Origin: Candidatus Hadarchaeota archaeon
Lineage (GTDB): Archaea; Hadarchaeota; Hadarchaeia; Hadarchaeales; Hadarchaeaceae
Direction of reading: 5' to 3'
Length of the DNA: 32,000 bases
Assembly (NCBI GenBank): GCA_964514965.1
Contig: CAZETV010000001.1
Coordinates: 270,001 to 302,000, forward strand
The position numbers and the translations under genes were made by a program. Shown here one piece after another: positions 1 to 24,425 of the stretch. Every line of letters begins with the position of its first letter. The first letter of the stretch is position 1. Under the pieces are notes generated by a model. That model saw only the letters and a list, made by a program, of their open reading frames with translations, was not told the origin of the DNA and made no database searches.

Positions 1-1
1 G

Positions 2-190
2 TTTGTGGGACAACTTCTGTGGCAACATGCTCTGAGAATCGAAGAAGCGAGCGCACTCTCCCCTGTGGTTGGATCCGTGGCACCGCTTGCCTTCCTCTTC
101 AGCATATTATTCTTGGGGGAGAGACCCACCAAAAGAGCGATTCTAGGGATGGTCATCATGTTTACAGGAATATTATTAATCACTGTATAG
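2..190 (+). CDS. EamA/DMT-family transporter, C-terminal fragment (gene begins upstream of the window)
   Basis: The frame is open from the window edge to TAG at 188-190. The tail SPVVGSVAPLAFLFSILFLGERPTKRAILGMVIMFTGILLITV looks like the last TM helices of an EamA domain. Confidence 0.55.
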   Translation, partial: FVGQLLWQHALRIEEASALSPVVGSVAPLAFLFSILFLGERPTKRAILGMVIMFTGILLITV

Positions 191-311
191 GTTCAACTCA
201 GTCCAGCAAATCTGGTACAAAGAGTCATTGTACAGTTTAGTACGAAAATTTAATCGCGACACTAAACCCCACGTTATATTTTTAATTAACAAGAATTTAG
301 TGTTCCAAGCC

Positions 312-1640: not shown

Positions 1641-2056
1641 TTTTTGAACCTCTTTTAATCGTTGATTTTTAATCATTTAAAAGTGATGTTGCAAGCTTAG
1701 CTTTGCACAATGATTAGTTTTCTGCACAAAATTGATCAAGGCCGCGGAAGATTCTTTAACGCCTCAGCCCAAAATATTACCTCGTTAAACCATGCGCTAA
1801 CACTCTCTAATGAAACTTAAATTTCAATTTTCATGACTTTTTGATAAAACGCAGGAACCCTTAATATTTTCCTTGATGCTCAAGCCGCGTGGTATTTGCA
1901 ATATCGGCTGCATACTTTGGATGATTTCTATAAGTTCGTCCATGGAGACCCCGCCACCGACTATATCGTTGAAATTGGAGCGATATCCTAATTACCCACC
2001 TTATTGATAGCTGGTTTCTAAATGGTCTCAATTTCCGTGATATTTTTAGGATGTAA

Positions 2057-3412
<1,356 letters not shown>

Positions 3413-3540
3413 TTCTGAAGTAAAATAAAGCACAAATTTTGGCGGAGGAGTACTATTATCTACCCCTATCTACTTGATAACGGTGAAAATTATATATACT
3501 ATGCTCATAAAAACGAAAATAAGAAACAGGAGCAAAAAAT

Positions 3541-4617
3541 ATGAAAGATAACGTACCACGAAAAATAAAAAATTCACTCACAAGTCCTTTTGCCAAATTC
3601 GTTTACAAGCGGATTGCATTCTATTTAATTGTGGCTTTTGTCGCAATAACCTTCACCTTTCTTTTACCTCGATTGATGCCAGGAAATCCTGTTGACCTTA
3701 TGATCAGCCACAAATCGACAAATATAGGGGGCGCGTCTCAAACCGGGAGCATGACAGTGCTTACTGATATGCGAAACACGATGATGACATACTTTGGTTT
3801 AAATAAATCATTGCTTGATCAATATGCGAGTTTTTGGGGGCAACTTTTCCACGGGGACTTAGGGACATCGTTTGGTCAGTATCCACGGTCAGTTTCGGAG
3901 CTGATTTTAATAAGATTGCCATTTACCTTGGTTCTCGTGATCCCAGCAATTTTAATCACTTTCTTTTTGGGAAATTGGATTGGATCTAAATCCGCATTTC
4001 TAAAAGGTAAGAAGAATGATTTAAGTTATTTTCTATCTGTTCTCGCCAATCAAATGCCGTTCTTCTGGCTGGCGATGATTCTTGTGGCTGTTTTTTCGGT
4101 AACGCTGAGTATTTTCCCCTCCTATGGGTGGATTACCAGAGAATTGTTGCCCACCCTTCGCTCGGGTGTTAGTCTTAACGCGTTTCTCGATATAGTCAGC
4201 CACTATATTTTGCCATTTCTTGTTCTGATAATCGTGTACACAGGCGGATGGGCCATAGGCATGAGGTCCATGACGCTTTACGAGAATAACTCTGATTACA
4301 TTCTCTACTCTGAGCGGCTGGGTTTCAGAAAAGATAAGTTAAGGTCCTACGCTCAGAGGAACGCGATTCTGCCGCAGTTTACGGGTTTGAACTTGATGTT
4401 CAATACACTTGTTGGGGCAACCCTGATCATCGAAGTCGTTTTCGGATGGCCCGGAATCGGTTATTTGCTGTACAAGGCTGTGTTAAATTTAGACTTTCCA
4501 TTAGTGATGGGGGGTTTCCTTATCACGATGCTCATAGTAATCTTTGGTAACTTCCTGATAGACATCGCGTATGGGTTAGTAGACCCGCGCATCAGAACTG
4601 GTTATCTGGGGAGATAA
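3541..4617 (+). CDS. ABC transporter permease, Opp/Dpp (OppB/DppB-like) family
   Basis: 358-aa multi-TM protein with the C-terminal DIAYGLVDPRIR motif typical of OppB/DppB permeases. First gene of a five-gene ABC operon; GGAG lies 8 nt upstream of the ATG. Confidence 0.85.
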   Translation: MKDNVPRKIKNSLTSPFAKFVYKRIAFYLIVAFVAITFTFLLPRLMPGNPVDLMISHKSTNIGGASQTGSMTVLTDMRNTMMTYFGLNKSLLDQYASFWGQLFHGDLGTSFGQYPRSVSELILIRLPFTLVLVIPAILITFFLGNWIGSKSAFLKGKKNDLSYFLSVLANQMPFFWLAMILVAVFSVTLSIFPSYGWITRELLPTLRSGVSLNAFLDIVSHYILPFLVLIIVYTGGWAIGMRSMTLYENNSDYILYSERLGFRKDKLRSYAQRNAILPQFTGLNLMFNTLVGATLIIEVVFGWPGIGYLLYKAVLNLDFPLVMGGFLITMLIVIFGNFLIDIAYGLVDPRIRTGYLGR

Positions 4618-4618
4618 A

Positions 4619-5446
4619 ATGTGGGAGCTACTCTTAAGAAATAAGAGATTTATGATATCTCTGGGCGTTATAGTCGCCATCGTACTATTCGGTATAATAG
4701 CGCCCCTAGTGTCCCGAGACCCGTTAAAAGTCTACGGCGAACCTTACCAGCCACCTTCTGGTGAGTTCATCCTAGGCACTGATTCTTTCGGGAGGGATGT
4801 GTTTGCAAATCTCAGCGTGGGCACCTGCACCTCGCTTACGATTGGTCTTTTTGCCGGAGGCATATCCGCTCTCTTGGCCGTTGTCTTTGGAGCCATAGGA
4901 CCTTACAAGCGGGGGCTAGTAGATAACGTTTGTAATTTTATAACCAATATTATGCTGGTTTTTCCAGTGATACCCCTGTTGATAATCATATCGGCGTTTC
5001 TCATGGAAAGGTCTCTGTTGCTGGTGGGTTTAATAATAGGCTTAATAAGTTGGCCTTGGGCGGCGAGGTCTATACGTTCCCAAGTTCTCAGTCTGAAGGA
5101 GAGGGAATTTGTAAGTCTGGCCAAACTGTCTGGCATAAAGGAGAGAACGATAATAATAACAGAGATTTTGCCTAATTTATTAGCTTACGTCGCAATGGTC
5201 TTTGTGTTCGCGATCGGTGGAGCTATTTTGGCTGAAGCTGGCATTAGCATGATAGGCCTGGGCCCCACTAACACCGTTTCACTGGGTACACTTCTTTATT
5301 GGGCTTTGCTGAACGAGACTTTTAGGCAGGGAATTTGGTGGATGTTCCTTCCCCCAGGAATAATCTTGACCATTCTCATGGTGGCTGCTTTTACTATGCA
5401 CTCTGGAATGGACGAGGTATTTAATCCTAGATTACGTACGAGGTGA
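4619..5446 (+). CDS. ABC transporter permease, Opp/Dpp (OppC/DppC-like) family
   Basis: 275-aa multi-TM protein with GTDSFGRDVF near the N-terminus and an EAA-loop-like SLAKLSGIKERTIITEILPN. It starts 1 nt after the upstream stop codon. Confidence 0.85.
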   Translation: MWELLLRNKRFMISLGVIVAIVLFGIIAPLVSRDPLKVYGEPYQPPSGEFILGTDSFGRDVFANLSVGTCTSLTIGLFAGGISALLAVVFGAIGPYKRGLVDNVCNFITNIMLVFPVIPLLIIISAFLMERSLLLVGLIIGLISWPWAARSIRSQVLSLKEREFVSLAKLSGIKERTIIITEILPNLLAYVAMVFVFAIGGAILAEAGISMIGLGPTNTVSLGTLLYWALLNETFRQGIWWMFLPPGIILTILMVAAFTMHSGMDEVFNPRLRTR

Positions 5447-5451
5447 TCTGA

Positions 5452-6435
5452 TTGGCTAAACGACCACTTTTGGTAATAAAAAATCTCAGAGGTTACTATA
5501 AAGGGACGTTCGGCGTCGTTCATGGTGTCGACGGAGTTTCGCTCTCAGTTAATGAAGGCGAGGTAGTGGGGCTTGCCGGTGAGTCTGGCTGTGGAAAATC
5601 AACACTTGCCGAACTAGTTTCAGGCACTCCCGGCCCGCTATTACATTATGAGGGGGGCAATATACTTGTCAATGGCTTCGATATTTACAAAATCAATCCT
5701 GAAGTTTTGAGGACGCAAATCAAATGTAAGCGCATGTCATACGTCCCCCAAGCTTCGTTAAATTCTTTGAACCCAGTTAAGAGGGTAAGAGATTTCCTCA
5801 TGGACGTTGTGAAAGAGCGCACCGGCAAAAAACCCCGTAAAGACGAGGTTTTCAAAATTGCAGGCGAACATTTAAGGAGGCTGGGGTTGGACGAACATGT
5901 CCTCAGTCTCTATCCGCATGAACTTAGCGGAGGCATGAAGCAAAGAACTGTCATAGCGATATCCACCCTTTGGAACCCAGAACTTCTCATAATAGACGAA
6001 CCGACTTCCGCTCTCGATGTAACCTCACAAAAGCACATGATACGATTACTTTTGAATTTGAAAAAAGATGAAATAATCAAGAGCATATTGTTCATTTCCC
6101 ATGACATTTCCACCTTAAGACAACTGTGCGATAGATGTATTATTATGTACGCGGGGAGGGTGGTTGAAACAGGAAAAATGGATGAAATAATAAATAATCC
6201 TCTTCACCCCTACACCCGCGGGCTTATATCCTCCATTGTTTCTTACGATATTAAAAAAAGAGGAAAGGGCGGTTTGAAAAGCATTCCCGGGGTACATCCA
6301 GATTTAAGGAACCCCCCACCCGGCTGCAGATTTCATCCCAGATGCGAGAAATGTATGGAGATGTGCAAGACTAAAGAGCCCCCTCTCCAATCGAAACGCG
6401 AGAGACAGATTTCTTGCTGGCTATACCGTAGGTGA
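5452..6435 (+). CDS. ABC transporter ATP-binding protein (OppD/DppD-like)
   Basis: Walker A GESGCGKST, signature LSGGMKQR and Walker B LLIIDEPTSALD. The C-terminal oligopeptide-type extension carries a Cys cluster (CRFHPRCEKCMEMC). TTG start. Confidence 0.9.
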   Translation: MAKRPLLVIKNLRGYYKGTFGVVHGVDGVSLSVNEGEVVGLAGESGCGKSTLAELVSGTPGPLLHYEGGNILVNGFDIYKINPEVLRTQIKCKRMSYVPQASLNSLNPVKRVRDFLMDVVKERTGKKPRKDEVFKIAGEHLRRLGLDEHVLSLYPHELSGGMKQRTVIAISTLWNPELLIIDEPTSALDVTSQKHMIRLLLNLKKDEIIKSILFISHDISTLRQLCDRCIIMYAGRVVETGKMDEIINNPLHPYTRGLISSIVSYDIKKRGKGGLKSIPGVHPDLRNPPPGCRFHPRCEKCMEMCKTKEPPLQSKRERQISCWLYRR

Positions 6436-13495: not shown

Positions 13496-14611
13496 TTAGC
13501 GCTTACTCTTTTGCACATAATCCAAAATGACTTGCGTAGCTCTAGCAGCACCCTTTCCATCAACAAGCTTCTTACCGGCCTTGGACATCGCTTCTCTTTT
13601 TTTCGTGTCAGCGAGTATTTCAGTAATCTTTTCGGCAAGCGTTTTTGGCTCGAGAGATTCTAAAGAGTAATGCACGCCCGCTCCCGCGTTCTCTATCCAC
13701 GAAGAAGTTTGTGATGGATCCCCTTGAAAAGAAGAGTTAATCATTATTTGCGGTGTGCCAATAGCTGCTGCTTCTGAGGCAGTCAAAAATCCTCCGTGGT
13801 TTATGATGAGATCACTATCCAAAGTATACTCAGGGAGATTTGGTAACCATCTCGTAATCATAATATTTTCATCACCCAATGTGCTGGGGAATATTTCATT
13901 GGGATCATTTAAAATTATATATGCGTCTGGATTTTCTTTTTTTATCATGCCAAATATATTTACAACGATTTTGAGTATTCCTTGCAGTACCGCGCTCCCC
14001 CCGATAGTCACTAGAATAACAAGCTTATCCTCAGGTATGTTAAGCTTCTTTCGAACATCATTTTTGTTCTGGTTTTTAATGTGATTGATCTCTGGCGAAA
14101 TAACTGGTCCGACAAAGCGTATCTTATTTTTGGGCATAATATCCGGTATAAAGCTTGAAGATAGTTTATCCTGCAGATACATAAACAGGATTAAGTCGTT
14201 AAGAAGATAAGTCGGATCCAGCAGCCAAGACTCCAACATATTGGTTATCACAAAGTGAGGGATACCCAAACTTTTTGCTCCAAAAAGAGATAAATACGAA
14301 AAATTCTCCCCCAATACAACATCAGGTTTATACAATTCAGAAATGGCGGCGACTCTATAGTTTCTAGTTAGGACATGTTCATAAGTCTGTTCAAAAAAGG
14401 GGAGTGGTTGATGTTTTAGCGCAGGAAAGCCTTCTCTTGTAACTGCGTCGAATTCTTTCCCCGCCGCTAAAAACAAAACCTGCCCACCTCTATTTACAAT
14501 CTCTTTAGCTAGTGCCAGCCCAGTTAGAACGTGACCCATCACCCACCCTTCATGGAAAAATTGCATATTTGGTAGCGCGATAAGCACCTTGCTCCCACTT
14601 TGTTCAGACAT
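13496..14611 (-). CDS. GT-B fold glycosyltransferase (GT1/GT28, MGT/UDP-glycosyltransferase-like)
   Basis: 371 aa. The C-terminal nucleotide-sugar binding motif NHGGFLTASEAAAIGTPQIMI and the overall MurG/MGT-like layout support the call. GGAGGT lies 7 nt upstream of the ATG. Low G+C. Confidence 0.7.
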   Translation of the reverse strand: MSEQSGSKVLIALPNMQFFHEGWVMGHVLTGLALAKEIVNRGGQVLFLAAGKEFDAVTREGFPALKHQPLPFFEQTYEHVLTRNYRVAAISELYKPDVVLGENFSYLSLFGAKSLGIPHFVITNMLESWLLDPTYLLNDLILFMYLQDKLSSSFIPDIMPKNKIRFVGPVISPEINHIKNQNKNDVRKKLNIPEDKLVILVTIGGSAVLQGILKIVVNIFGMIKKENPDAYIILNDPNEIFPSTLGDENIMITRWLPNLPEYTLDSDLIINHGGFLTASEAAAIGTPQIMINSSFQGDPSQTSSWIENAGAGVHYSLESLEPKTLAEKITEILADTKKREAMSKAGKKLVDGKGAARATQVILDYVQKSKR

Positions 14612-14884: not shown

Positions 14885-15052
14885 TTAGTCTTTCTTTTTT
14901 CTATCTTTCTCGTGTTTTGATTTTTCCAGTTCTTTTGTTATAAGTTCCTCAATGAAGTCGGTGAGAGTTAATCCTTTATCTATCGCTAATTTTTTAGCCT
15001 CTTTCCATATCTCTGGGTCGGCCTTGATACTCGTGGTTCGCCTTTCTGCCAT
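14885..15052 (-). CDS. Small ribbon-helix-helix (CopG/Arc/MetJ-like) DNA-binding protein (55 aa; not in the ORF track)
   Basis: My own translation is MAERRTTSIKADPEIWKEAKKLAIDKGLTLTDFIEELITKELEKSKHEKDRKKKD. It shows a beta-strand (TTSIKAD) followed by two helices, typical of RHH. GAGGTG lies 7 nt upstream of the ATG. The gene is divergent from the transposase gene. Confidence 0.65.
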   Translation of the reverse strand: MAERRTTSIKADPEIWKEAKKLAIDKGLTLTDFIEELITKELEKSKHEKDRKKKD

Positions 15053-15074
15053 ATCTACCCACCTCTATTTAGTA

Positions 15075-15170
15075 GTAATACTATTTAAAGGTAATACTAA
15101 TTTTATAGTATTACTTTCGGTGACCCCTCCCCTAAAACCATATGAGTAATATTAGTATTACGTAATACTT
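15075..15170. repeat. Array of six copies of the 9-mer GTAATACTA (direct and inverted)
   Basis: Direct copies at 15075-15083 and 15091-15099; inverted at 15106-15114, making a perfect 9-bp IR with a 6-nt spacer. Then GTAATATTA at 15146-15154, inverted at 15153-15161, and direct GTAATACTT at 15162-15170. Direct copies are 16 bp apart in both clusters. Confidence 0.85.
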
Positions 15171-15181
15171 GAGGAAGCAAG

Positions 15182-16135
15182 ATGATAACATTAAAACAAG
15201 AAACCGCAATAATAGGCGGGGAGTTGAAATCCTGCGAACCAATTATTTGCAACCGTTGCGGCTCTGAGAATCTCATTAGACGGGGTTATCGAAGAAACAA
15301 GAACCACAAAGTCCAGCGTTTCGGGTGCAAGGATTGCGGTCACAGGTTTGTCGTTGAGCTTGACGGGTTCAGGAAGATGGTCTACAGGCCGGAGACCGTC
15401 ACCCTCGTTTTAGACCTCTATTTCAAGGGGCTTTCTCTGCAAAAGATAGTGGATCACTTGAAGCAATTCCACCACTTAGAGGTTCACAACACGATCGTTC
15501 TGAAATGGATTCAAAAATATGTCAAAGTCATGGGGGATTATGTCAGTCAGCTAAAGCCCGAAGTCTCGAACGTTTGGCATTCTGATGAAATGGTGGTAAA
15601 CGTAAATGGAAAATATCGCTGGCTGTGAAACCTTCTCGACAAGGACACGCGGTTCTTGTTAGCCACGCAACTGACCGAGCAGAGATACACAGATGACGCA
15701 AAGACCCTTTTTCACGAAGCCAAAGTCACGGCTGACAAAAGCCCTAAGGCAATAGTCACCGATGGTCTGCCAGCGTATCGACACGCATATTTGTCGGAAT
15801 TCTGGACGGAAGACCTGAGAACACGCTTTTTGCGCATGGTGACGCTGGGAGACAAGACCAACCAAAACATCATCGAGAGATACAACGGCACGAACCGAGA
15901 GAGAAACAAGACGATGAGGGCATTGGATACGGACAAATCGGCTCAGACTTACGTTGACGGTTTCCAAGTCTATTACAACTTCATCAAACCGCACATGGGG
16001 CTTGACGGCAAAACGCCAGCCGAAGCCGCAGGTCTTGATTTGGGATTGATTGAAAACCGCTGGCTGTATTTGTTGGACAAGAGTCTCAAGTCCCGAAATT
16101 CAGCAACGGGCAATTTGGATGTGAAAAGTCCCTGA
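15182..16135 (+). mobile_element. IS6-family-like DDE transposase gene with an N-terminal Zn finger, interrupted by an in-frame TGA (15626-15628)
   Basis: Zn finger CNRCGS...CKDCGHRF. DDE region WHSDEMVVNVNGKYRWL[TGA]NLLDKDTRF, then IVTDGLPAYRHA, then NIIERYNGTNRERNKTMRAL, which parallels the IS26/IS240-type transposase. Both track ORFs (15182-15628 and 15656-16135) are in the same frame. Confidence 0.75.
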
Positions 16136-16149
16136 GGTTCAGCAGAACC
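16136..16149. repeat. Perfect palindrome GGTTC-AGCA-GAACC between convergent stops (possible IS right end and/or terminator hairpin)
   Basis: Seen directly. Read inward from 16149 it is GGTTCTGCTGAACC, which resembles the IS6-family terminal repeat consensus GGTTCTGTTGCAAA as I recall it (10/14). Confidence 0.4.
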
Positions 16150-16160
16150 CGAAAATCAAC

Positions 16161-18362
16161 TCACCCATATAAATTACGGATCTCCAGCACGCAGACCTCT
16201 TGTGATTCCAACTCCCGCTCAATCTGGAGGCCGTTTTCGTAGCTCCAGTTCACCTCCGCTTGCTTGGAGATATCAAAAATCCTGTATTTTCCATTGGGGA
16301 CTCGAAGACGGAAACTGATGTTGGCTTTTTTGTCACCGTGGTTAAAGCCGAACAGAAGCCTGTATCCTTCGCCCTCCAAAATCCGCCCTTCCGCCTTGCC
16401 CCCGTGTATTTCCACCAGAGGTTCAACACCGGCCCATTTAAAGAGGCCTTTCAAGAACTTTTCGTTTTCCTCATCACGAAGTTTTTCGTATGCCTCGCTG
16501 ACCAAAGATCCCACTAATACCGCCTTGCCTTTGCCGTAGCTGTTAATTATCATCGCTGGAGAACCGTCCTCAAAGCGTGCCAAAATTTTTGCAGTATCCT
16601 TCGACGGTTCCAAGGCCTCTTCGTAAAGCGACCCTGAAATTTTCATTTTTCCTGCTAGAGATGGCGCAAACTCTTGCGGTGATTCCACCAGTAGATTCGG
16701 CTTCTGCCTCTCGCGTATCCATCGCTCCTTGCAACCGAAAACCTCATGCAGGCCGAGACCAGGGATCACATCTGAACATCGCCCCTTCTCATCGCTCCAC
16801 CCAGGCCTAATTTCCGCCACCAGCTTTCCCCCCTGACGGACAAACTCTTTTATGCCTTCGGCGATTTCGGATGTCATCATGATAGCGAAAGGCATGACGA
16901 TGAGTTTGTAATTTTTCACTTTCCCCTTGGCGAAATCATTGATGTGGATGAAATCTACCGGGATGTTCTCCTCCAATAGGGCACGATAGATGCCCGTTAA
17001 AGCTGAGGATATAATATTTACAATCTCATTAGCTCGCTCCCTAGAACAAGCCAGCATGATGTAGGAATAGATGTCGTACACTATACCTACTTCCGCTTGC
17101 GGAGTCTTGGCGTTTGAAAATAACTCCATATTTTTATCGACTATTTCCGCGACCTTTCCAGCCGCCCGGGCCTGCTCAGTTATGCTCCCGCCCAAGTTTA
17201 TCAATCCGAACCCGGAGGTCTCATACCCGCAGCTCATCGGGTACCAAGCGTAGAAGTTCAACCCTTTCGCATTTCGGGATATCGCGCTCCAAGCCCACAT
17301 CTGCACGTCCTCGGGGGTGACCGGCTCTCCAAAGTGAATCCCCGTCGTGCCGTCTCCGCCCTGAAGTTCTCCAATCCAGAAATCTTTACCTTGACTGTTA
17401 GAAGAAGATCGGGTCGCATCGAGAGCCACCCCGCGCTGTGCAGGATCGAGCGGCATGCCCGCGCCGATGTGTTTCGGGTACATCGATGTCCCCCAAACAT
17501 CGACCTTTTTGGCCATCTCCCAATCATCAGGGTTACCATACCAATTTAGGGGCGGGATGAAAACCGAACTGAGGGCGGCGTGACTGGAAACCACATGGTC
17601 GGGATCGCTCTTCTTGATCGTCTGAACTCGCCACTCGAGATCCTCTGCCAGCTTTTCTATGTTGAAGATCTGCCAGTCTACGAGATCCCGCCAGGTCGAC
17701 AACGTCACGTACTTCGGCGGGATTACTTCGTCCCAGTCCCGATATGCGCGATACCAGGCCCTGTTCAGGTTGCCTATATCGCCGTAAAGCTTTTCCAGCC
17801 AACGGCGAAATCGCTCCTGACTGTGACTACAATAGCAGAACCAACCGACCGATTCAGGGAGCCAATCTAGCCAAGTCCAACTAATCACATGCGGTTCGCT
17901 CCAGACATCCCAACCCAAAAAGGCTGGGCTGCCCTTTACTCGCTCGGCCACTTTTTGCATGAAAAGCTCCGCTTCTTTCCTGACATCCGGGTGGTCGCAA
18001 CAAAATCCCGGTGAAGCCTGCGAGTCAACAATGTCATCGCTTTGTGCTTGAAAGCGTGAATCGGGATGTAAAGAGGCGATCCAGTTGGGCGCCGAGTCTA
18101 GATAAAGCTGAATGATCACCTTTAATCCATTTTTTTCCGCCAAATCCATGAGACGGTCTATGAAGTCCAAATTCCAAACCCCGGGTTCTGGCTCTACTGT
18201 TAGCCAGTCGACCCAATACCTCACGGCGTTGAAACCGAGTTTTTTTACGTTCCCGATGTCCATCTCGGCGATTTTGTAGCTTTCTTCGGTAGGTTGGGCA
18301 AGCATGGGCGCACGCGCCTTAGCTTCGCCGTACCACACGGAAATCGGAAAGAAACCTGCCAT
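16161..18362 (-). CDS. Glycoside hydrolase family 42 beta-galactosidase
   Basis: 733 aa. Has NAVRYWVDWLTVEPEPGVWNLDF and KNGLKVIIQLY...PNW, with acid/base region GWDVWSEPH and nucleophile region FWIGELQGG. Also a partial Zn-site FCYCSHS and the trimerisation-domain motif YKLIVMPFAIMMTSEIAEGIKEFVRQGGKLVAE. Confidence 0.85.
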   Translation of the reverse strand: MAGFFPISVWYGEAKARAPMLAQPTEESYKIAEMDIGNVKKLGFNAVRYWVDWLTVEPEPGVWNLDFIDRLMDLAEKNGLKVIIQLYLDSAPNWIASLHPDSRFQAQSDDIVDSQASPGFCCDHPDVRKEAELFMQKVAERVKGSPAFLGWDVWSEPHVISWTWLDWLPESVGWFCYCSHSQERFRRWLEKLYGDIGNLNRAWYRAYRDWDEVIPPKYVTLSTWRDLVDWQIFNIEKLAEDLEWRVQTIKKSDPDHVVSSHAALSSVFIPPLNWYGNPDDWEMAKKVDVWGTSMYPKHIGAGMPLDPAQRGVALDATRSSSNSQGKDFWIGELQGGDGTTGIHFGEPVTPEDVQMWAWSAISRNAKGLNFYAWYPMSCGYETSGFGLINLGGSITEQARAAGKVAEIVDKNMELFSNAKTPQAEVGIVYDIYSYIMLACSRERANEIVNIISSALTGIYRALLEENIPVDFIHINDFAKGKVKNYKLIVMPFAIMMTSEIAEGIKEFVRQGGKLVAEIRPGWSDEKGRCSDVIPGLGLHEVFGCKERWIRERQKPNLLVESPQEFAPSLAGKMKISGSLYEEALEPSKDTAKILARFEDGSPAMIINSYGKGKAVLVGSLVSEAYEKLRDEENEKFLKGLFKWAGVEPLVEIHGGKAEGRILEGEGYRLLFGFNHGDKKANISFRLRVPNGKYRIFDISKQAEVNWSYENGLQIERELESQEVCVLEIRNLYG

Positions 18363-18573
18363 TTCTATTCTCCCCTTTCCTTCATCATTTTTTTACCTAT
18401 TATGACTACTTTCCCCGTCCCCTCAATCGTATTTATCCCAGTCAACTTCTATCCTCACATTTTCACCTATCTCGTCTGAAACTCAATCAGTCTTTTTTTT
18501 TACTATTAACCGTGTATTCATGTTTATTTAAATATTGCGAATCTAGATTCGGTCATAAAAGTTCAATTTACGG

Positions 18574-19902
18574 TTAAAATTCGATAAAATCGATATTTAG
18601 CAGTTCACTTATTATTCCCAATTTTTTGGCGTGACTGCCATAAGCTAGTACACGATGTTCGCCATAGAAATTATTAACGAATTTTTGAGGAGTTTCAGTT
18701 TTAACTCCTATTTTTGTTCTGCATCCTCTCTCTGATTCTATATTATCTTCGATCCTTGATTCGAATGCAATCATTTTGTAACCGCAAAACTTTTTGGATG
18801 CGATCACTTCCTGATACGCTTCGCTCCCCGATATATCCGCGTGCGCCATGCTCATCAATTCTGCAATAGTTACTGTCTGTCCCACTTTCATTTTGACCTG
18901 TAAACCGACTTTATCTCCAGATTCTGCATGGCTTCTTAAAATATAGTCCTCATGTGTCGCTGGAAATCCATTCATCTTAGTGGGTGAGGTACAATGGCTA
19001 AATATCATTTCTTTTTTATCAGTATCTATCACGGGGTCTGACATATACGATGGTCTATCAGCAAGATAGCGAAAAATAAGCATTGCTAGCATCGTGTCAA
19101 GGTCTGCTTCGCAAGCGGCCACAATCCCTTGATCATTCAGCAGGGAGTTGGCTATGCATGGTGTAGCTGGAATTGCATCTGACGGAACTACACCACCGGG
19201 TAAGCAATCTATGGTGAGAGCATTGGCTTTCTCTTCTTTTAGGATATATTTCACTGCCAGATATAATTTCACAGCATTAACGATATCTGCTTTCGAGGGT
19301 TCAATTATCTTCTTCGCATTTTTCATCACTTCATTCGTTAATTTCTCGGCTTCATCTATCTTCACAGAATTGTAGGCATTTTCAAGTCTCTTATGTCCTA
19401 TCTGTTTGATTTCGACACTGAATATCCTTTTAACCCTGTCCACATAGGAAGGGGGAATCCACCTATCTTTAAACACTAATATTTTGGTTCTCTTCAGTTT
19501 TGCTATTGCATCAATTATTTCTATTTTTTCGTTTAGATCATCCATGTTGCTTGATGCCACGACTATAACATTCTTTTTTTCTCTTTTGAAGCGCCCCGAC
19601 CCATCCCAGTAAGTACTAAACGGTTTTGTGTAGAGAATAATTGGTACTCCAAAATCTGCAATTTTAAAGAGTAAATCTGGTGCGGCCGACCCCAATTCCG
19701 TAGTTAAATAGGAGACTAGGAGCCCATCAGCACCACGTATTTTACCCGACAATTCAACAAGTTCCTCATCAGTGGACACCAGATCAAAGCCAGTAAATTT
19801 TATTTCGGTGCTCAATTTTTTTCTTAATTTTTCCAATTGTGATTTAAGAATCTTTATTTCCTTATCAATATCAAAATTGGCGTGAGGCCAACCTTTTTGC
19901 AT
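18574..19902 (-). CDS. Sugar isomerase-like protein (L-fucose/L-arabinose isomerase superfamily, tentative)
   Basis: 442 aa. The segment GIVAACEADLDTMLAMLIF resembles the ACE-x-D catalytic-region pattern of COG2407-type isomerases, and the N-terminal half looks Rossmann-like. There is an in-frame TAA at 19924-19926, so no upstream extension is possible. Confidence 0.4.
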   Translation of the reverse strand: MQKGWPHANFDIDKEIKILKSQLEKLRKKLSTEIKFTGFDLVSTDEELVELSGKIRGADGLLVSYLTTELGSAAPDLLFKIADFGVPIILYTKPFSTYWDGSGRFKREKKNVIVVASSNMDDLNEKIEIIDAIAKLKRTKILVFKDRWIPPSYVDRVKRIFSVEIKQIGHKRLENAYNSVKIDEAEKLTNEVMKNAKKIIEPSKADIVNAVKLYLAVKYILKEEKANALTIDCLPGGVVPSDAIPATPCIANSLLNDQGIVAACEADLDTMLAMLIFRYLADRPSYMSDPVIDTDKKEMIFSHCTSPTKMNGFPATHEDYILRSHAESGDKVGLQVKMKVGQTVTIAELMSMAHADISGSEAYQEVIASKKFCGYKMIAFESRIEDNIESERGCRTKIGVKTETPQKFVNNFYGEHRVLAYGSHAKKLGIISELLNIDFIEF

Positions 19903-20243
19903 CCCACGTTTTCCAACAAATATTACTTGAATGATTAGATTACCTCCCTATTTTACGGGCCCTCAAATCTAGATAGTTTTAGAAATATTAAGAAGTTAAC
20001 ATTTCTCCTAATTGTTTGAAACCGGTTATTTTTACTATTCTTTTATTCGTGGAGTAAATCATAAATATTTTACAATTATAGAGCTATTTTTGATTATTTT
20101 TTACAAAATTTATTACTTTATTTAAATTTTTTTCATGTTTAAATCAAAATAATAGATAATCCGACTCAAAATGATACATTTATAAGGGAAAATGATATTG
20201 GTATCTTGTAAAGTCATCCCAGCTAATTAGATGAGGTGATATT

Positions 20244-21293
20244 GTGGATAAGTATGGAAAAAGGCCCATAACAGAAATCCCTGTCATCGAAATAGAAGGC
20301 GTCGGAAAAACGTATGCTGAAAAATTGGCAAATGTTGGAATTTATACCATTGGTGATCTGGTATTTATTGACCCTGAAATTGAATACACTAAATTAGATT
20401 CGGAAATACCTCTTCCAAATTTGAAGAAATGGAAATCAATGGCAACCTTCATGCAGGTCCCGGGGATAAACAATCAATTTGCAGAAGCATTAGTTCGGAG
20501 TGATGTTTTAACCTTAGAGGATTTGTTTAACCCTCCCCCATCAGAAATCGTCAAAAAGATTGAGAATGCGTATAAGAAGAAAATTGTTCCTGAAAAGGTT
20601 GATTTGCTCACAGCAGCGGAATGGCAGAAAGAAGCAATAAAATTAGCATACACATCTAGTATTAACGGTTTGGTGTTCGACTCAAAAACAAAAAATCCGA
20701 TAAAGGGAGCAACAATCTCCTGTTTCGATAAAACAACAAAAACGAATGAACAAGGTGAATTTGTTTTAAATCTTATTCCGTACGGTGAACGATCCATATC
20801 CGTCGAGAAGAAAAATTACTATGATTTTGAAATGAAGATAAGTATTGGGTTAAAGCCATCAAAACTGAAAATTTTCGTTACGAAGTCGCCTGATGGGTTC
20901 TCATCGCCTGTGCATGCATCTGAATACGAATCCCAACATGTCAATGTGTCACCAAATGATACCTTAATTATGAAGCAAAAAGATCTGAGTGAAATACCAG
21001 ACGGTGCTTACCTGCAAATAATGAAATTTTATAAGAGAGAACCAATAGCGAAATTATTCAGTTTGTCCAAATACAAAATCGGGCAAAAGGTCTTTGTCGA
21101 TATAATAAAAGTTGATAAGAACTTGATTCCCAAAGGTGCCGAGGAATGGTCCATTTTAAGAAAAAAGGATGGGAGCTTAACAAAAACTGATCTCACGTTC
21201 AAAGATTATGTTGAGCAACGGTTTGAGAAAGAGACGGGAATGTCGCTTGACACATTCAAACAAATTTTTACCCAAGTTCCAGGAGGATCGTAA
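20244..21293 (+). CDS. Hypothetical protein: two helix-hairpin-helix (DUF4332-like) motifs, a CarboxypepD_reg-like beta-sandwich and an unknown C-terminal domain
   Basis: GTG start with GAGGTGAT (20233-20240) upstream. HhH-like IEGVGKTYAEKLANVGIYTIGDL and VPGINNQFAEALVRSDVLTLEDL. Beta-sandwich-like INGLVFDSKTKNPIKGATISCFDKTTKTNEQGEFVLNLIPYGERSISVEKKNYYDF. I recognise no family for the last ~150 aa. Confidence 0.6.
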   Translation: MDKYGKRPITEIPVIEIEGVGKTYAEKLANVGIYTIGDLVFIDPEIEYTKLDSEIPLPNLKKWKSMATFMQVPGINNQFAEALVRSDVLTLEDLFNPPPSEIVKKIENAYKKKIVPEKVDLLTAAEWQKEAIKLAYTSSINGLVFDSKTKNPIKGATISCFDKTTKTNEQGEFVLNLIPYGERSISVEKKNYYDFEMKISIGLKPSKLKIFVTKSPDGFSSPVHASEYESQHVNVSPNDTLIMKQKDLSEIPDGAYLQIMKFYKREPIAKLFSLSKYKIGQKVFVDIIKVDKNLIPKGAEEWSILRKKDGSLTKTDLTFKDYVEQRFEKETGMSLDTFKQIFTQVPGGS

Positions 21294-21294
21294 A

Positions 21295-21864
21295 ATGTCG
21301 ATAGGATTGAAAGTCATTTACTATTTTGATGGTAAGAATGGATGTGCTCTTTGCCAATCAATGACTGGGTGGTACGATGATCGTCCTTCAAGACCGCACA
21401 AGAATTGCAAATGTCCGATTAATTGTTATGCGGGCTATGGGTGGTACGAAATCCGGGATATAACCGAAAGTTCTAGCTCCTATACTAAGCAATGGGATAA
21501 AGAATATCATTTTAAGAACGACAAAGATTTCCCTATAACAACGCCAGCGGAAAGTTTTGAAGTTAAATTAGAAAAGAGTTGGAGTATAAACGCTGGTTTT
21601 GAAGGATATGCGGGCGTAAGTGGAAGTGGAAGCGAAAGTGACACCCGCACACTGACTATACCGTCCCAAACTCTCCCACCACATTCCGAGCTTAATGTTC
21701 ACGTTGAAATCTACGGAGAAACAATGTACTATAGTGGTACAAAATATTTCGTATTTCATGTTTATACCGGGCCTCAGGCCGGAGAGGACGGAGAAATCGA
21801 AATAGGCCCAGTTTATGGGGGGGTCAAACAAGAAGACGGATCATGTGAAGCGGTATACGAATAA
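21295..21864 (+). CDS. Hypothetical small protein with a phage Mu-F/SPP1-gp7-type Cys/His motif and a beta-rich C-terminal region
   Basis: ATG 21295 is preceded by AGGAGGA (21281-21287) and lies 1 nt after the upstream TAA. The motif is CALCQSMTGWYDDRPSRPHKNCKCP, i.e. CxxC...PHxNCxC. The track ORF start at 21208 overlaps the upstream gene and is unlikely. Confidence 0.65.
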   Translation: MSIGLKVIYYFDGKNGCALCQSMTGWYDDRPSRPHKNCKCPINCYAGYGWYEIRDITESSSSYTKQWDKEYHFKNDKDFPITTPAESFEVKLEKSWSINAGFEGYAGVSGSGSESDTRTLTIPSQTLPPHSELNVHVEIYGETMYYSGTKYFVFHVYTGPQAGEDGEIEIGPVYGGVKQEDGSCEAVYE

Positions 21865-21932
21865 CCTATTTCACGAATTTTGGTCTTTCATTAACTTAAC
21901 CACCATCGAGATTATGGGTGGATGGTCGAAAA

Positions 21933-22805
21933 ATGGGAAAATATCAGTGGTACAGCAACAATCATGAAGTAATGTCCTATTTTGCAGCGCTTTCTATGCC
22001 TCCTTTTTTCCAGAATTTGATTTTCGATCCCGTCATGAGAGGCTATTTTATCTTGGGAGTTGTCGCACCGGATAAACTATTCTGCGATTTTTCAAACCAC
22101 TACTACAATATCACGCCCACCAAAAGCGGGCAACATTACGGTAAAATACACGAAAAAGTAGAAAAAGAGACTATACTTATTAGAAAAATGCTTGATAACA
22201 CTGACCAAGTTATTTTATACCCAAAAGCGAGCAGCTTCTTTCGCGGAATTATCGATAACCCTATGAAGGCCGTTGTTTTTGAATTGGGCGTGATATCTCA
22301 TTATGTAGCTGACGCACACCAACCTTTTCACACAGATGGACAGTTACGTTATCCTGATGTCAAATACGATGAAATACCGATTCACAGAGCCTATGAGGAA
22401 GATGTCAGAAAAAATCTCGGCACGTTATCGTCTTTTTATTTATCATCAGATGTACGTGGGAGGGAACCGTGCAAAATAAACGATACGAAAAAATTCATCC
22501 TTGAAGTTGTCGAAAAACACAACAAATATTACGATGAATTATTTGATGTCTATTATCCCATTAGTAAACACAACGAAAAAACAAGGTTCAAAGATGTTTT
22601 GAGTTTAACTAGGGTTTGTTTCAATAATTCTATTTACGACATCCGGAATGTTTGGAATTTGTTTGGTGATATCGAGGAAAAACTTTCTGAAAGTGCAATA
22701 CTGGAAAAAACGATAAATGACATTGAAAGCAAGATGAACAAGAAGAATAGGTATAAAATCAAAGTATTCAAAAATGGAAATTTCAAAATCATCTCCAAAA
22801 AATGA
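21933..22805 (+). CDS. Zinc-dependent phospholipase C / S1-P1 nuclease superfamily protein
   Basis: From ATG 21933: W6 and H11 (QWYSNNH), D47 (VAPDKLF) and H56 (SNHYY). Then HYVADAHQPFH (H-x3-D-x5-H) and IHRAYEE (H-x3-E). This reproduces the nine-ligand tri-zinc signature of alpha-toxin/P1 nuclease. GTG 21918 is an alternative start. Confidence 0.65.
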   Translation: MGKYQWYSNNHEVMSYFAALSMPPFFQNLIFDPVMRGYFILGVVAPDKLFCDFSNHYYNITPTKSGQHYGKIHEKVEKETILIRKMLDNTDQVILYPKASSFFRGIIDNPMKAVVFELGVISHYVADAHQPFHTDGQLRYPDVKYDEIPIHRAYEEDVRKNLGTLSSFYLSSDVRGREPCKINDTKKFILEVVEKHNKYYDELFDVYYPISKHNEKTRFKDVLSLTRVCFNNSIYDIRNVWNLFGDIEEKLSESAILEKTINDIESKMNKKNRYKIKVFKNGNFKIISKK

Positions 22806-22848
22806 GCAGACACTAAAGTCCAAGATTTAGATATTTTCACCCATAAAA

Positions 22849-22945
22849 TGGCGGGCCCGCGGGGATTTGAACCCCGGTCACAAGCTCCGCAGGCTTGTGT
22901 CCTCTCCGGGTGCTTGGTGCACTATCCAGGCTAGACTACGGGCCC
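22849..22945 (-). tRNA. tRNA-Arg (anticodon GCG) with an ~18-21 nt insertion (non-canonical intron) in the D-loop and an encoded CCA
   Basis: Reverse complement folds as follows. Acceptor GGGCCCG/CGGGCCC. D-stem GTCT/GGAC. Anticodon arm CAAGC-CTGCGGA-GCTTG (U33, GCG, G37). T-arm CGGGG-TTCAAAT-CCCCG. Discriminator G plus CCA. Total 97 nt, and the excess lies between the D-stem halves, containing the hairpin GTGC-ACCAA-GCAC. Confidence 0.8.
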
Positions 22946-22967
22946 GTTTAGACATACGTGGGTGTTC

Positions 22968-22975
22968 AAATAAAA
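22968..22975 (-). promoter_or_regulatory. TATA box of the tRNA-Arg promoter
   Basis: On the minus strand, TTTTATTT ends 22 nt upstream of the tRNA 5' end. This is the expected archaeal TATA position. Confidence 0.55.
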
Positions 22976-23038
22976 CGCACCTAGAAGTGGCAAGCAAAAG
23001 CGTAAAAACTGGTTCGACAAGAATGGATAGGGTTCAAT

Positions 23039-23203
23039 ATGGTGGCTGTATGCACCTCATGCAATCGCGAAATAGCCCAGGGTGATCGGGCAACGCGTTT
23101 TTCATGCCCCAGCTGTGGCTCCGTCGAAATATGGCGCTGCTCGAAGTGTCGGCGCCTCAGCAATCCATACCGCTGCCCGAGCTGTGGCTTCACGGGGCCC
23201 TGA
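23039..23203 (+). CDS. Zn-ribbon protein (COG2888/DUF1610-type, usually found upstream of aEF-1beta); 54 aa, not in the ORF track
   Basis: My own translation is MVAVCTSCNREIAQGDRATRFSCPSCGSVEIWRCSKCRRLSNPYRCPSCGFTGP. It has four CxxC pairs. It ends 9 nt before the EF-1beta ATG, the conserved archaeal gene pair. Confidence 0.8.
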   Translation: MVAVCTSCNREIAQGDRATRFSCPSCGSVEIWRCSKCRRLSNPYRCPSCGFTGP

Positions 23204-23212
23204 GGTGTTTGA

Positions 23213-23470
23213 ATGGCTGAGGTAGCAGTCACTCTTAGGTTGATGCCAGAGAGTCCAGAAGTTAATCTAGACCTTCTTGAAGCCGAGGTAAAAAAGCACG
23301 TTAAAGTTCACTCAATCTCCCGTGAACCGGTCGCCTTTGGGCTTGAAGCGCTCCAGGTTGTCGCGGTCATCCCGGACGCGGCCGGTGGGACTGAGCCGCT
23401 CGAGCAAAAACTCGCGAGCCTGCCCGGTATTGGCAATGTTCAAGTAATCAATTTGACCCGATTGTTGTAA
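23213..23470 (+). CDS. ef1b: Archaeal translation elongation factor 1-beta (aEF-1beta)
   Basis: 85 aa: MAEVAVTLRLMPESPEVNLDLLEAEVKK...VAFGLEALQVVAVIPDAAGGTEPLEQKL. This is the typical aEF-1beta sequence and length. Confidence 0.88.
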   Translation: MAEVAVTLRLMPESPEVNLDLLEAEVKKHVKVHSISREPVAFGLEALQVVAVIPDAAGGTEPLEQKLASLPGIGNVQVINLTRLL

Positions 23471-23528
23471 TTTTCGCGAATATTTGAACAAGCATCGTTA
23501 ACCCTTTAGGCGCCATTGGTCACATTTT

Positions 23529-24425
23529 ATGGACGGTAACATGTTGAAAAATCCGGCCGAGCGGGCAGCTTTAGTTTCAGTTATCACGACCACCGCGGTC
23601 GGCGCTGTCGAACTCTGGGCAGCTTTCCTATTCGGGAGCCTTGCTTTAATCGCCGCGGGCATAGATGCAATCTCTGACACAGCTACTTCAGTAGGTGTCT
23701 TCACTGGACTGCGTATTTCCAGGCGCCCCCCCGATCGAAATCACCCTTATGGACATGCTCAGGCCGAGACCCTCGCCTCAGTTCTGTTGGCGGCAGTTCT
23801 CATCTTAGCTGGCGTGCGAGTGGCATATTTGGCAATAGAAAAAATTCAACTGGGGTTAGCCGTCAATGCAACACCTGAACTTTTCTTGGTCGCGGGTATA
23901 ACCCTCGTGATTTTCGGCGCCCTGGCAAGATACAAAATTCGCACTGGCAGGCGGGTCAAAAGTCTATCACTCGTCGCGGATGGATACCATACTCTTACTG
24001 ACTCCGTTTCCTCAGCAGCAATCATAGCTGGACTGATTGGAGTGAGGTTAGGCTACGCGTGGGCGGACCCCGTGGTTGCACTGATGATATCGGCAATCAT
24101 TCTCCGGTGGGGGGTCGGCATTGGGCGTGATGCGCTAAATATTCTAATGGAAGCGAGTCCAGGCCCAGAACTTTTTGCCAAAATAAATAGGATTACTATT
24201 GGTGTACCAGGGGTGCTAGGGTGCCACAGATGTCGTGCCCGCAGGGTGGGGTCCCGCATATTCGCGGATGTGCACATCTACGTCGACCCAAAGATGAACG
24301 TCGATAAAGCGCACGAAGTAGCAACACGCGTTGAGCGCAATTTAAAAACGCGAATAGCCGACTTAACATCGGTAGTCGTGCACATAGAACCAACTAAGAG
24401 GCGTGCATATGGCAAAAAGCGTTGA
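23529..24425 (+). CDS. Cation diffusion facilitator (CDF) family metal efflux transporter
   Basis: 298 aa with six predicted TM helices. Motifs AAGIDAISD, HPYGHAQAETLAS and DGYHTLTD, plus a C-terminal cytoplasmic domain with CHRCRARRVGSRIFADVHI. Confidence 0.85.
   Translation: MDGNMLKNPAERAALVSVITTTAVGAVELWAAFLFGSLALIAAGIDAISDTATSVGVFTGLRISRRPPDRNHPYGHAQAETLASVLLAAVLILAGVRVAYLAIEKIQLGLAVNATPELFLVAGITLVIFGALARYKIRTGRRVKSLSLVADGYHTLTDSVSSAAIIAGLIGVRLGYAWADPVVALMISAIILRWGVGIGRDALNILMEASPGPELFAKINRITIGVPGVLGCHRCRARRVGSRIFADVHIYVDPKMNVDKAHEVATRVERNLKTRIADLTSVVVHIEPTKRRAYGKKR

Follow-up and report, generated by a model that had tools for sequence, protein, structure and literature searches.

A recurrent archaeal gene cassette pairing a helix-hairpin-helix protein with a predicted aerolysin-like protein and a putative metallo-phosphodiesterase

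Pore formers of the aerolysin family are known as secreted toxins and as animal immune effectors. Bacterial gasdermins are pore-forming suicide effectors, and the Listeria toxin LLO together with PlcA/PlcB represents a pore-former-plus-phospholipase pair. Few effectors of programmed cell death and immunity are known in archaea. We analysed a 32,000-nucleotide stretch of DNA from Candidatus Hadarchaeota archaeon (assembly GCA_964514965.1, contig CAZETV010000001.1, positions 270,001 to 302,000 of the forward strand; this whole stretch is called the window below, and positions are counted from its first letter), in which the open reading frame (ORF) listing confirmed three same-strand genes, A, B and C, packed into a cassette at 20244-22805. 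The second of these genes encodes what structural models and sequence profiles predict to be a small member of the aerolysin superfamily. Aerolysin-like genes have already been noted in Methanosarcinaceae (PMC3110756), so that archaeal occurrence is not in itself new. The combination of genes, which a preliminary description of the window had not recognised as any described system, matches none: no PADLOC model fits it, and the literature search returned nothing relevant. The three genes are:

20244-21293, plus strand: gene A, 349 amino acids, GTG start
21295-21864, plus strand: gene B, 189 amino acids
21918-22805, plus strand: gene C, 295 amino acids counted from the GTG at 21918

The preliminary description regarded B as a mini-protein and missed what appears to be the larger part of it. 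About 75% of the protein corresponds to a predicted aerolysin-like module, and B as a mere fragment of a MuF protein was ruled out on this ground. The features assigned to B are:

21295-21417 (amino acids 1-41), plus strand: MuF-type Cys/His knuckle, from family alignments
21418-21864 (amino acids 42-189), plus strand: predicted aerolysin/ETX-MTX2-like beta-pore-forming module, from AlphaFold2 (AF2), Foldseek and hidden Markov model (HMM) results
21544-21660 (amino acids ~84-122), plus strand: candidate amphipathic Ser/Thr-rich insertion hairpin, from hydropathy alternation

The AF2 model of B was built from a 62-sequence family alignment and reached a predicted local distance difference test score (pLDDT) of 94.7 and a predicted template modelling score (pTM) of 0.76; a model based on 9 sequences (pLDDT 53.9) was discarded. 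In the retained model the small knuckle caps an elongated sheet formed by strands at residues 42-75, 86-98, 110-122, 131-155 and 165-188, the longest of which span about 34 residues. Comparison with the PDB using Foldseek gave 24 matches at E<=1e-3, and all 24 were aerolysin-family structures (probability 0.85-1.0, with the best at 1.0): lamprey immune protein, parasporin-2, Dln1, epsilon toxin, aerolysin, Cry23, Cry51, Sip and the SaroL-1 pore-forming lectin are in this set. Weaker matches, at E-values of 1e-3 to 4e-2, also fell in the aerolysin family (Mpp75, a Bacteroides putative pore-forming toxin, a Bombina aerolysin-like protein, LSL and lysenin). The template modelling scores (TM-scores) against these structures were low (0.25-0.37), as expected because of the long flexible sheets.

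A sequence-based route led to the same family. When the B-family HMM was run against all PDB sequences, seven chains were retrieved at E<=10 and all seven belonged to the aerolysin family, with E-values of 0.0045 for Dln1, 0.027 for lamprey natterin-like protein, 0.099 for ETX, 0.11 for parasporin-2 and 0.42 for monalysin. ETX_MTX2 was the commonest Pfam match among the 62 family members, with a best E-value of 0.002. Hydropathy averaged over the family alternates across residues 84-102, and Ser and Thr account for 37-55% at every other position of 109-122, so that residues 84-122 make a candidate insertion hairpin, though not uniquely: other strands of B also carry a period-2 signal, and the return strand of the hairpin is weakly hydrophobic. 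By fold prediction and profile, B is a structural member of the aerolysin superfamily that lies below the Pfam thresholds and has a new architecture, with a MuF-type Cys/His knuckle apparently fused to an aerolysin-family beta-pore-forming module.

The N-terminal knuckle carries a CxxC...PHxNCxC motif, which the preliminary description had read as being of the type found in phage head-morphogenesis (Mu F / SPP1 gp7) proteins. This reading is supported through intermediate sequences, with no direct match in B: the full MuF domain of about 110 residues (PF04233) did not match B at E<=1 in the Pfam search. The motif is invariant across alignments of the B family (C17, C20, H35, C38 and C40), and the knuckle presumably binds zinc. 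Word-indexed searches of 5.8 billion proteins retrieved close relatives of B in about 9 clusters at 90% identity. An exhaustive HMMER profile search yielded 167 representatives, most of which match only profile positions 8-46, corresponding to the knuckle, and C..C...PH.NC.C begins within the first 40 residues in 132 of the 151 proteins examined. In larger relatives the knuckle stretch coincides with positions 62-111 (of 112) of Phage_Mu_F (PF04233), an overlap seen in P0170 (1e-7, above the cut-off), P0102, P0127 and P0161, and two relatives carry Ntox44 toxin domains. Through these intermediates the B knuckle is homologous to the C-terminal end of Phage_Mu_F. Searches of NCBIfam, PADLOC and PHROGs gave no meaningful family for B, the PHROGs 'minor head protein' reaching only E=0.95.

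The exhaustive profile search also retrieved a set of 57 representatives (within P0050-P0189) of 100-160 amino acids, in which a B-like N-terminal knuckle precedes a C-terminal region that is shorter than that of B and unlike it; this region often contains a '...VEC.DG.T...' stretch, with Cys pairs at the C-terminus. These short proteins make up another architecture based on the B knuckle, so far uncharacterised.

Protein A is, from its profile matches, a protein with helix-hairpin-helix (HhH) motifs, a beta-sandwich and a novel domain, as the preliminary description had already noted; Pfam and PDB-profile searches agree with these calls. Its features are:

Amino acids ~14-132, plus strand: DUF4332 with two HhH motifs (Pfam; DUF4332/HhH 8e-13, also HHH_5)
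Amino acids ~137-210, plus strand: CarboxypepD_reg-like beta-sandwich (Pfam, 9.5e-9)
Amino acids ~211-349, plus strand: C-terminal domain of ~140 residues, conserved, with no family match

A profile made from six divergent A sequences matched only two kinds of PDB sequences, Dpo4-type HhH (amino acids 4-48) and beta-sandwiches (137-208), the latter from scaffoldin, NOMO and carboxypeptidase D. The family search with the C-terminal ~140 residues gave no assignment, and this domain is conserved as far as the bacterial A-like proteins. One protein that clusters with A at 90% identity carries the annotation Hadesarchaea. The literature search found essentially no description of DUF4332.

Protein C matches Pfam PF00882 (Zn_dep_PLPC) with 42.1 bits against a cut-off of 26.8 (E=1.2e-10), and this domain is carried by all 33 C homologues found; the match of C to the S1-P1 nuclease family is weak. 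With residues numbered from the GTG at 21918, the predicted metal-ligand positions are W11, H16, D52, H61, H128, D132, H138, H156 and E160. Seven of these nine tri-zinc positions, all of which the preliminary description had reported as present, are invariant in an alignment of 22 sequences (the invariant residues being D52, H61, H128, D132, H134, H138, D140, H156, E160 and D162), and the W-x4-H pair near the N-terminus (W11 and H16) is matched to the ligand set by pattern alone. A single-sequence PDB search with C returned nothing relevant, and a family profile was required: it aligned H128/D132/H138 and H156/E160 to the phospholipase C (PLC) structures 8cqm (2.7e-6) and 1ah7, placing these residues on the corresponding stretch of Bacillus cereus-type PLC. 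We therefore describe C, on sequence grounds, as a putative enzyme of the zinc-PLC/P1-nuclease superfamily whose ligand set appears intact.

The W-x4-H pair resembles the arrangement in P1 nuclease. In characterised zinc-PLC/P1 enzymes the Trp is the processed N-terminal residue and its amino group ligates zinc, and C differs in this respect. Its start probably lies at the ATG at 21933, the position equivalent to where the homologues begin, which makes the Trp residue 6 (11 from the GTG at 21918); in homologues it is residue 3-8, and no signal peptide precedes it. N-terminal processing that exposes the Trp is nonetheless conceivable. C also has a C-terminal extension of about 90 residues.

The nearest non-archaeal relatives of C are uncharacterised Cloacimonadota proteins. 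The 36 bacterial homologues (L011-L046; L numbers denote related loci), mostly from Cloacimonadota and most at 33-43% identity, have no A or B, and in 22 of 27 loci the gene lies immediately downstream of an SmpB-like gene. These bacterial genes occupy a conserved chromosomal position, and genes for lolD/macB-like ABC transporters often come next.

The preliminary description called the cassette an orphan, which it is not. The A-B-C arrangement recurs in four archaeal lineages, and A-B is found again in at least one lineage of bacteria and at two more metagenomic loci, so that A, B and C form a genuine conserved unit. The loci are arranged as follows:

Window: A-B-C, between an isomerase-like gene and tRNA-Arg
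L008: A-B-C, flanks different from those in the window
L003/L004: tRNA-Arg, 479-amino-acid gene, 303-amino-acid gene, A, B and the start of C; here the cassette has the opposite orientation with respect to the tRNA/EF-1beta block
L048/L049 (Hadesarchaea metagenome-assembled genome, MAG): A-B-C, neighbours NMD3 / DUF1508
L001/L002: A-B-C, neighbours desulfoferrodoxin / DUF2096
L005: A-B-C, adjoining PDC-S01
L010 (MAG labelled Aenigmatarchaeota): A-B-C
L006/L007: C-B, A absent
L009: B alone, C absent
L053: A-like, B-like and EEP (Exo_endo_phos_3) phosphoesterase genes, on one strand
L050/L051: A-like gene overlapping a B-like gene, then a convergent Metallophos gene; bacterial neighbourhood with PBP, STAS and PAS/GAF
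L047: A-like and B-like genes, then the end of the contig; metagenome locus

The conserved core of the module is therefore A and B, and the third gene is a metallo-phosphodiesterase gene drawn from up to three unrelated superfamilies. The tight coupling of A and B is likewise present in L001, L005, L010 and L048, and in L050 and L053 the two genes overlap (by 4 nucleotides and 1 nucleotide, respectively) instead of being separated by a spacer. In L005, genes upstream of the cassette (positions 1-6007) match PADLOC models for PDC-S01 (3.8e-108), an LmuB-like protein (1.5e-8) and a Cas4-like DUF2779 nuclease (5.6e-7), and these matches suggest that this copy sits in a defence-island setting. The Metallophos protein of L050 matches PDC-S10 in part.

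Two genes absent from the window lie between tRNA-Arg and the cassette in L003 (6404-8751) and L004 (2834-5181). One encodes a Lys-rich 479-amino-acid protein without a family match; the other encodes a 303-amino-acid acidic coiled-coil protein with zinc-finger-like Cys pairs at its C-terminus, where it also carries a B-type CxxC...HPNCxC knuckle. The weak LmuB/JetC matches of the latter were treated as coiled-coil noise.

Comparison with close relatives showed that A, B and C are functional genes under purifying selection, like the genes that flank them. The ratio of nonsynonymous to synonymous divergence (dN/dS) was 0.12-0.20 for A, 0.16-0.24 for B and 0.11 for C, and 0.06-0.18 for flanking genes, with dS of 0.28-0.48 in the cassette versus 0.37-0.69 in the flanks. 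The unit of ~2.7 kb has different neighbours in each genome, with six distinct insertion contexts among the relatives, and homology stops at the borders of the operon (from 20030-20232 to 22805 in the window). The alleles are mosaic, with discordant divergence between the three proteins, as seen in their identities to the window:

L048: A 87%, B 53%, C 82%
L001: A 72%, B 76%, C 44%

The divergent B allele of L048/L049 has a raised dN/dS (0.45-0.65). In the same loci (L048 11610-12513, L049 11600-12503) C is frameshifted after about codon 75, so that the N-terminal ligand region lies in another frame. Either the gene is truly decaying, or the two assemblies, which may come from one sample, share an error.

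The reading that we favour, tentatively and at somewhat less than an even chance, is that the locus represents one instance of a conserved module, so far undescribed, that is made in the cytoplasm and has a membrane-attacking role in conflict, serving either as suicide defence or as an antagonistic toxin. A conflict role is favoured because the unit has been relocated in every relative and has mosaic alleles, because its third enzyme is interchangeable, because other proteins join the knuckle to toxin domains, and because one copy stands in a defence-gene neighbourhood. An abortive-infection-like suicide defence or an antagonistic toxin seems most likely on this evidence, and a housekeeping role less likely. 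The preliminary description had pointed to a defence or toxin architecture with C as the effector. The first part gains from the different locus in each relative, the mosaic alleles, the low GC content and PDC-S01 beside the L005 copy; the second part gives way, as the killing or permeabilising effector is likely B, judging from its predicted fold, rather than C. We prefer B because members of other phosphoesterase families can take the place of the third gene and because bacterial C homologues are stably placed beside the SmpB-like gene; C as sole effector was rejected on account of this replaceability. As for defence islands or proviruses around other copies, L005 has neighbours that match defence models, most loci have housekeeping neighbours, and no viral neighbours are present.

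Inspection of the sequences by eye showed nothing like a hydrophobic signal segment at the N-termini of A, B, C or the corresponding bacterial proteins, and for this reason the proteins are probably cytoplasmic. In the mechanism that we propose, A, B and C would be made in the cytoplasm, where A, produced in step with B by translational coupling, would hold or target B and may also sense nucleic acid via its HhH motifs. Upon a trigger, B would oligomerise into a beta-barrel pore, insert its amphipathic hairpin and perforate the cell membrane. C, or the EEP or Metallophos enzyme in its place elsewhere, would cleave the head-group phosphodiesters of polar lipids, or possibly nucleic acid, thereby potentiating the damage. 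The most specific form of this proposal is a new type of suicide immunity in archaea and bacteria, in which A would recognise foreign nucleic acid through its HhH motifs and free the aerolysin-family protein B to perforate the producer's membrane from inside, helped by a lipid-head-group phosphodiesterase swapped among three superfamilies. We regard this specific form as possible but on balance doubtful.

Several points weigh against a conflict role and its proposed mechanism. The role of each protein is inferred from its fold or family, that of A as regulator or sensor being pure inference, and B itself matches Pfam ETX_MTX2 below threshold (E=0.095, 13 bits against a cut-off of 22). The aerolysin-family toxins known so far are secreted proteins that attack a cell from the outside, and to our knowledge action of a family member from the cytoplasmic face is unprecedented. 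The stable placement of C homologues in Cloacimonadota beside the SmpB-like gene, with neither A nor B, implies that C-type enzymes are not intrinsically toxic and possibly serve ordinary metabolism. PADLOC-DB v2 gave no match at E<=1 to A, B or C, nor to a bacterial A-like or B-like protein. Most cassette neighbourhoods consist of housekeeping genes and are not defence islands, and the similar dS of cassette and flanks points to long vertical residence. Finally, the Metallophos gene that converges on the pair in L050 may stand there by chance.

Some of these points would also fit a physiological function outside conflict, such as envelope or membrane-lipid maintenance, vesicle formation, or export of DNA or solutes, with B as a regulated channel or a structural beta-sheet protein and C remodelling head groups. 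Purifying selection and co-divergence with the host genome are consistent with such a function, as are the housekeeping neighbours, the PADLOC result and the stable chromosomal placement of C homologues by the SmpB-like gene and an ABC transporter; some aerolysin-fold proteins are moreover non-toxic, for example the crystal protein 2d42, which is among the fold matches of B. However, the family is rare and patchy, its position differs in each close relative, allele divergence is mosaic with C frameshifted in one genome, unrelated phosphoesterase families replace the third enzyme, the B-type knuckle is fused to Ntox44 elsewhere, and third-position GC content (GC3) is atypical. We therefore consider a physiological function unlikely.

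An exported set of antagonistic toxins, which we judge less probable again, would involve non-classical release of B and C against the membranes of competitors or host cells, with A acting as carrier or adhesin through its beta-sandwich. Such a set would be akin to the bacterial toxin pairs of pore former and phospholipase and to polymorphic toxins of the MuF type. CarboxypepD_reg domains are common in surface proteins, and Aenigmatarchaeota (DPANN), the annotation of one carrier MAG, live attached to host cells. Every structurally characterised relative of B is an extracellular toxin or immune effector, and the knuckle occurs both in trafficking domains of the MuF type and in Ntox44 toxins (Zhang et al. 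2012, PMC3482391). Yet the N-termini visible by inspection are not signal-like, the Cys-rich metal knuckle and HhH motifs would be more typical of cytoplasmic proteins, no candidate immunity gene is consistently present, and neither the window nor the related loci hold capsid, portal or terminase genes or other secretion apparatus.

The setting of the cassette in the window is defined by the following features:

21281-21297, plus strand: A/B coupling junction, with the TAA of A, a 1-nucleotide spacer and the ATG of B
19903-20243, no strand: upstream spacer, 341 bp, 25.5% GC, AT-rich and intergenic
22852-22945 with CCA at 22849-22851, minus strand: tRNA-Arg(GCG), Rfam RF00005, 56 bits

Close packing of three co-directional genes, with a 1-nucleotide gap between A and B and the Shine-Dalgarno sequence of B inside A, had been noted before and agrees with the ORF listing and the sequence: AGGAGGA lies at 21281-21287, within the final codons of A. 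A longer overlapping ORF for B opens at 21208, and homologues begin at 21295. The AT-rich upstream region of about 340 bp was likewise borne out, and homology to other cassette copies starts inside it. It contains a TTTATAA-like box near 20181 and a GAGGTGA Shine-Dalgarno sequence directly 5' of the GTG of A, and is presumed to hold the promoter region of gene A.

The cassette has a GC content of 37.7%, versus 45.4% for the whole window, and the GC3 of A, B and C (0.36-0.39) is among the lowest in the window. Similarly low values are found in the adjacent isomerase-like gene (0.36) and in a glycosyltransferase gene at 13496-14611 (0.39), with the other 24 genes at 0.43-0.64, and a low-GC island extends over 18574-22805. 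The isomerase-like gene (18574-19902, minus strand) encodes a 442-amino-acid protein with faint matches to L-fucose/arabinose isomerases; it diverges from the same AT-rich spacer and does not travel with the cassette in other genomes. On this flank lie glycoside hydrolase and glycosyltransferase genes, and on the other a small zinc-finger protein, EF-1beta, a cation-efflux protein, an aminotransferase and his genes. The zinc-finger protein (23039-23203) is a 54-amino-acid HVO_2753-like protein with four Cys pairs (PF07754, 7.7e-21), encoded directly upstream of EF-1beta, and the pair is kept in L003. At 15182-16135 two adjacent ORFs of 148 and 159 amino acids, the second matching DDE_Tnp_IS240 and rve_3, indicate a putative IS6/IS240-type transposase remnant, possibly split, about 4 kb upstream of the cassette.

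The tRNA that had been placed 44 nucleotides from the end of the cassette is a tRNA-Arg(GCG) with an encoded CCA, its 3' end lying at that distance from the stop of C. ARAGORN reported no tRNA, a false negative given the Rfam match, because 27 extra nucleotides interrupt the D-arm region of the gene; these are probably an archaeal intron of a non-canonical kind. Synteny with L003/L004 stops exactly at the 3' end of this tRNA (22848 in the window). The preliminary description had made the tRNA part of the architecture, and this did not hold up in other copies: no tRNA adjoins the cassette in L001, and L005, L008 and L048 have other neighbours. The tRNA-Arg gene is thus a neighbour and a synteny breakpoint, its adjacency incidental, and not a conserved part of the module. 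No repeat involving 22849-22945 was found within 15000-24000, and classical tRNA integration was rejected for want of att-type repeats of the tRNA end.

The preliminary description had suggested a decayed provirus fragment as its alternative, and the cassette might otherwise be cargo that an integrative or transposed mobile element left beside the 3' end of tRNA-Arg. Such an origin could draw on the synteny break at the tRNA, the inverted copy in L003/L004 with two extra genes (one bearing a B-type knuckle), the low-GC island, the nearby IS240-type DDE transposase remnant and the motif that B has in common with phage MuF proteins, but it is very improbable. Pfam assigned an integrase domain to none of A, B and C, the cassette neither contains nor adjoins an integrase gene, the 3' end of the tRNA has no direct repeat, other copies are not beside tRNAs, IMG/VR scans were negative for each of A, B and C, tblastn found no relatives of B in GenBank phages and none of two B-like proteins in plasmids, PHROGs gave nothing meaningful, the BFVD viral structure library gave one isolated match to the B model, and all three genes are under purifying selection with dS as in host genes. 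Provirus decay in particular was rejected on the basis of this selection and the lack of viral relatives and viral neighbours.

A compact, apparently signal-less branch of the aerolysin family with a MuF-type knuckle would be represented by 167 sequences across archaea and bacteria, in a fixed partnership in which an HhH protein and an interchangeable phosphodiesterase are encoded in the same operon as B. If B perforates membranes from within, it would constitute a new class of effector for programmed cell death and immunity in prokaryotes, archaea included. Should the suicide-immunity reading be true, B would be the first aerolysin-type effector of prokaryotic immunity and a functional analogue of gasdermins, and the MuF knuckle would be a portable docking or regulatory module. 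If the proteins are instead exported, deep-subsurface archaea such as Hadesarchaea would gain a membrane-attack weapon. Either way, these results offer testable roles for DUF4332-type proteins and for the conserved end of the MuF domain, and the very small size of this aerolysin scaffold could make it attractive to those who engineer nanopores.

Among known systems, the aerolysin / ETX-MTX2 family is the only one recovered by both fold and sequence-profile searches of B, and residues 42-189 of B share with it the predicted elongated long-strand sheet and contain a candidate for its amphipathic Ser/Thr-rich hairpin. Unlike the members of this family, B is much smaller (189 amino acids) and has no lectin or receptor-binding domain, activation propeptide or visible signal sequence; it also carries a MuF-type knuckle and shares an operon with an HhH protein, and its pore formation is a prediction. 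An aerolysin-family anti-phage effector was not reported in the literature that our search covered.

With Phage Mu F and SPP1 gp7, B shares, through intermediate sequences, a knuckle corresponding to the last ~50 positions of PF04233. That the knuckle is combined with variable C-terminal domains, including Ntox44, recalls the organisation of MuF polymorphic toxins (Zhang et al. 2012, PMC3482391; Jamet et al. 2017, PMC5576092). In contrast to Phage Mu F, B lacks the remainder of the MuF domain, has its knuckle at the extreme N-terminus and not at the C-terminal end as in the PF04233 domain, and has neither portal, terminase or capsid genes nearby nor relatives on viral contigs.

C shares the H128-x3-D132-x5-H138 and H156-x3-E160 pattern with zinc-dependent PLCs (Bacillus cereus PC-PLC, Listeria PlcB and C. 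perfringens alpha-toxin), and differs from the characterised enzymes in having no signal peptide and in its ~90-residue C-terminal extension. The module differs from gasdermin systems in having no homology to gasdermins, no associated protease or NLR-like sensor and no matching PADLOC model. The likeness that we propose to gasdermins is by analogy, and would lie in a cytoplasmic pore former that is restrained by a partner and perforates the producer's own membrane; that to pairs of the LLO-PlcA/PlcB type, equally an analogy, would lie in a pore former and a lipid phosphodiesterase acting jointly on a membrane.

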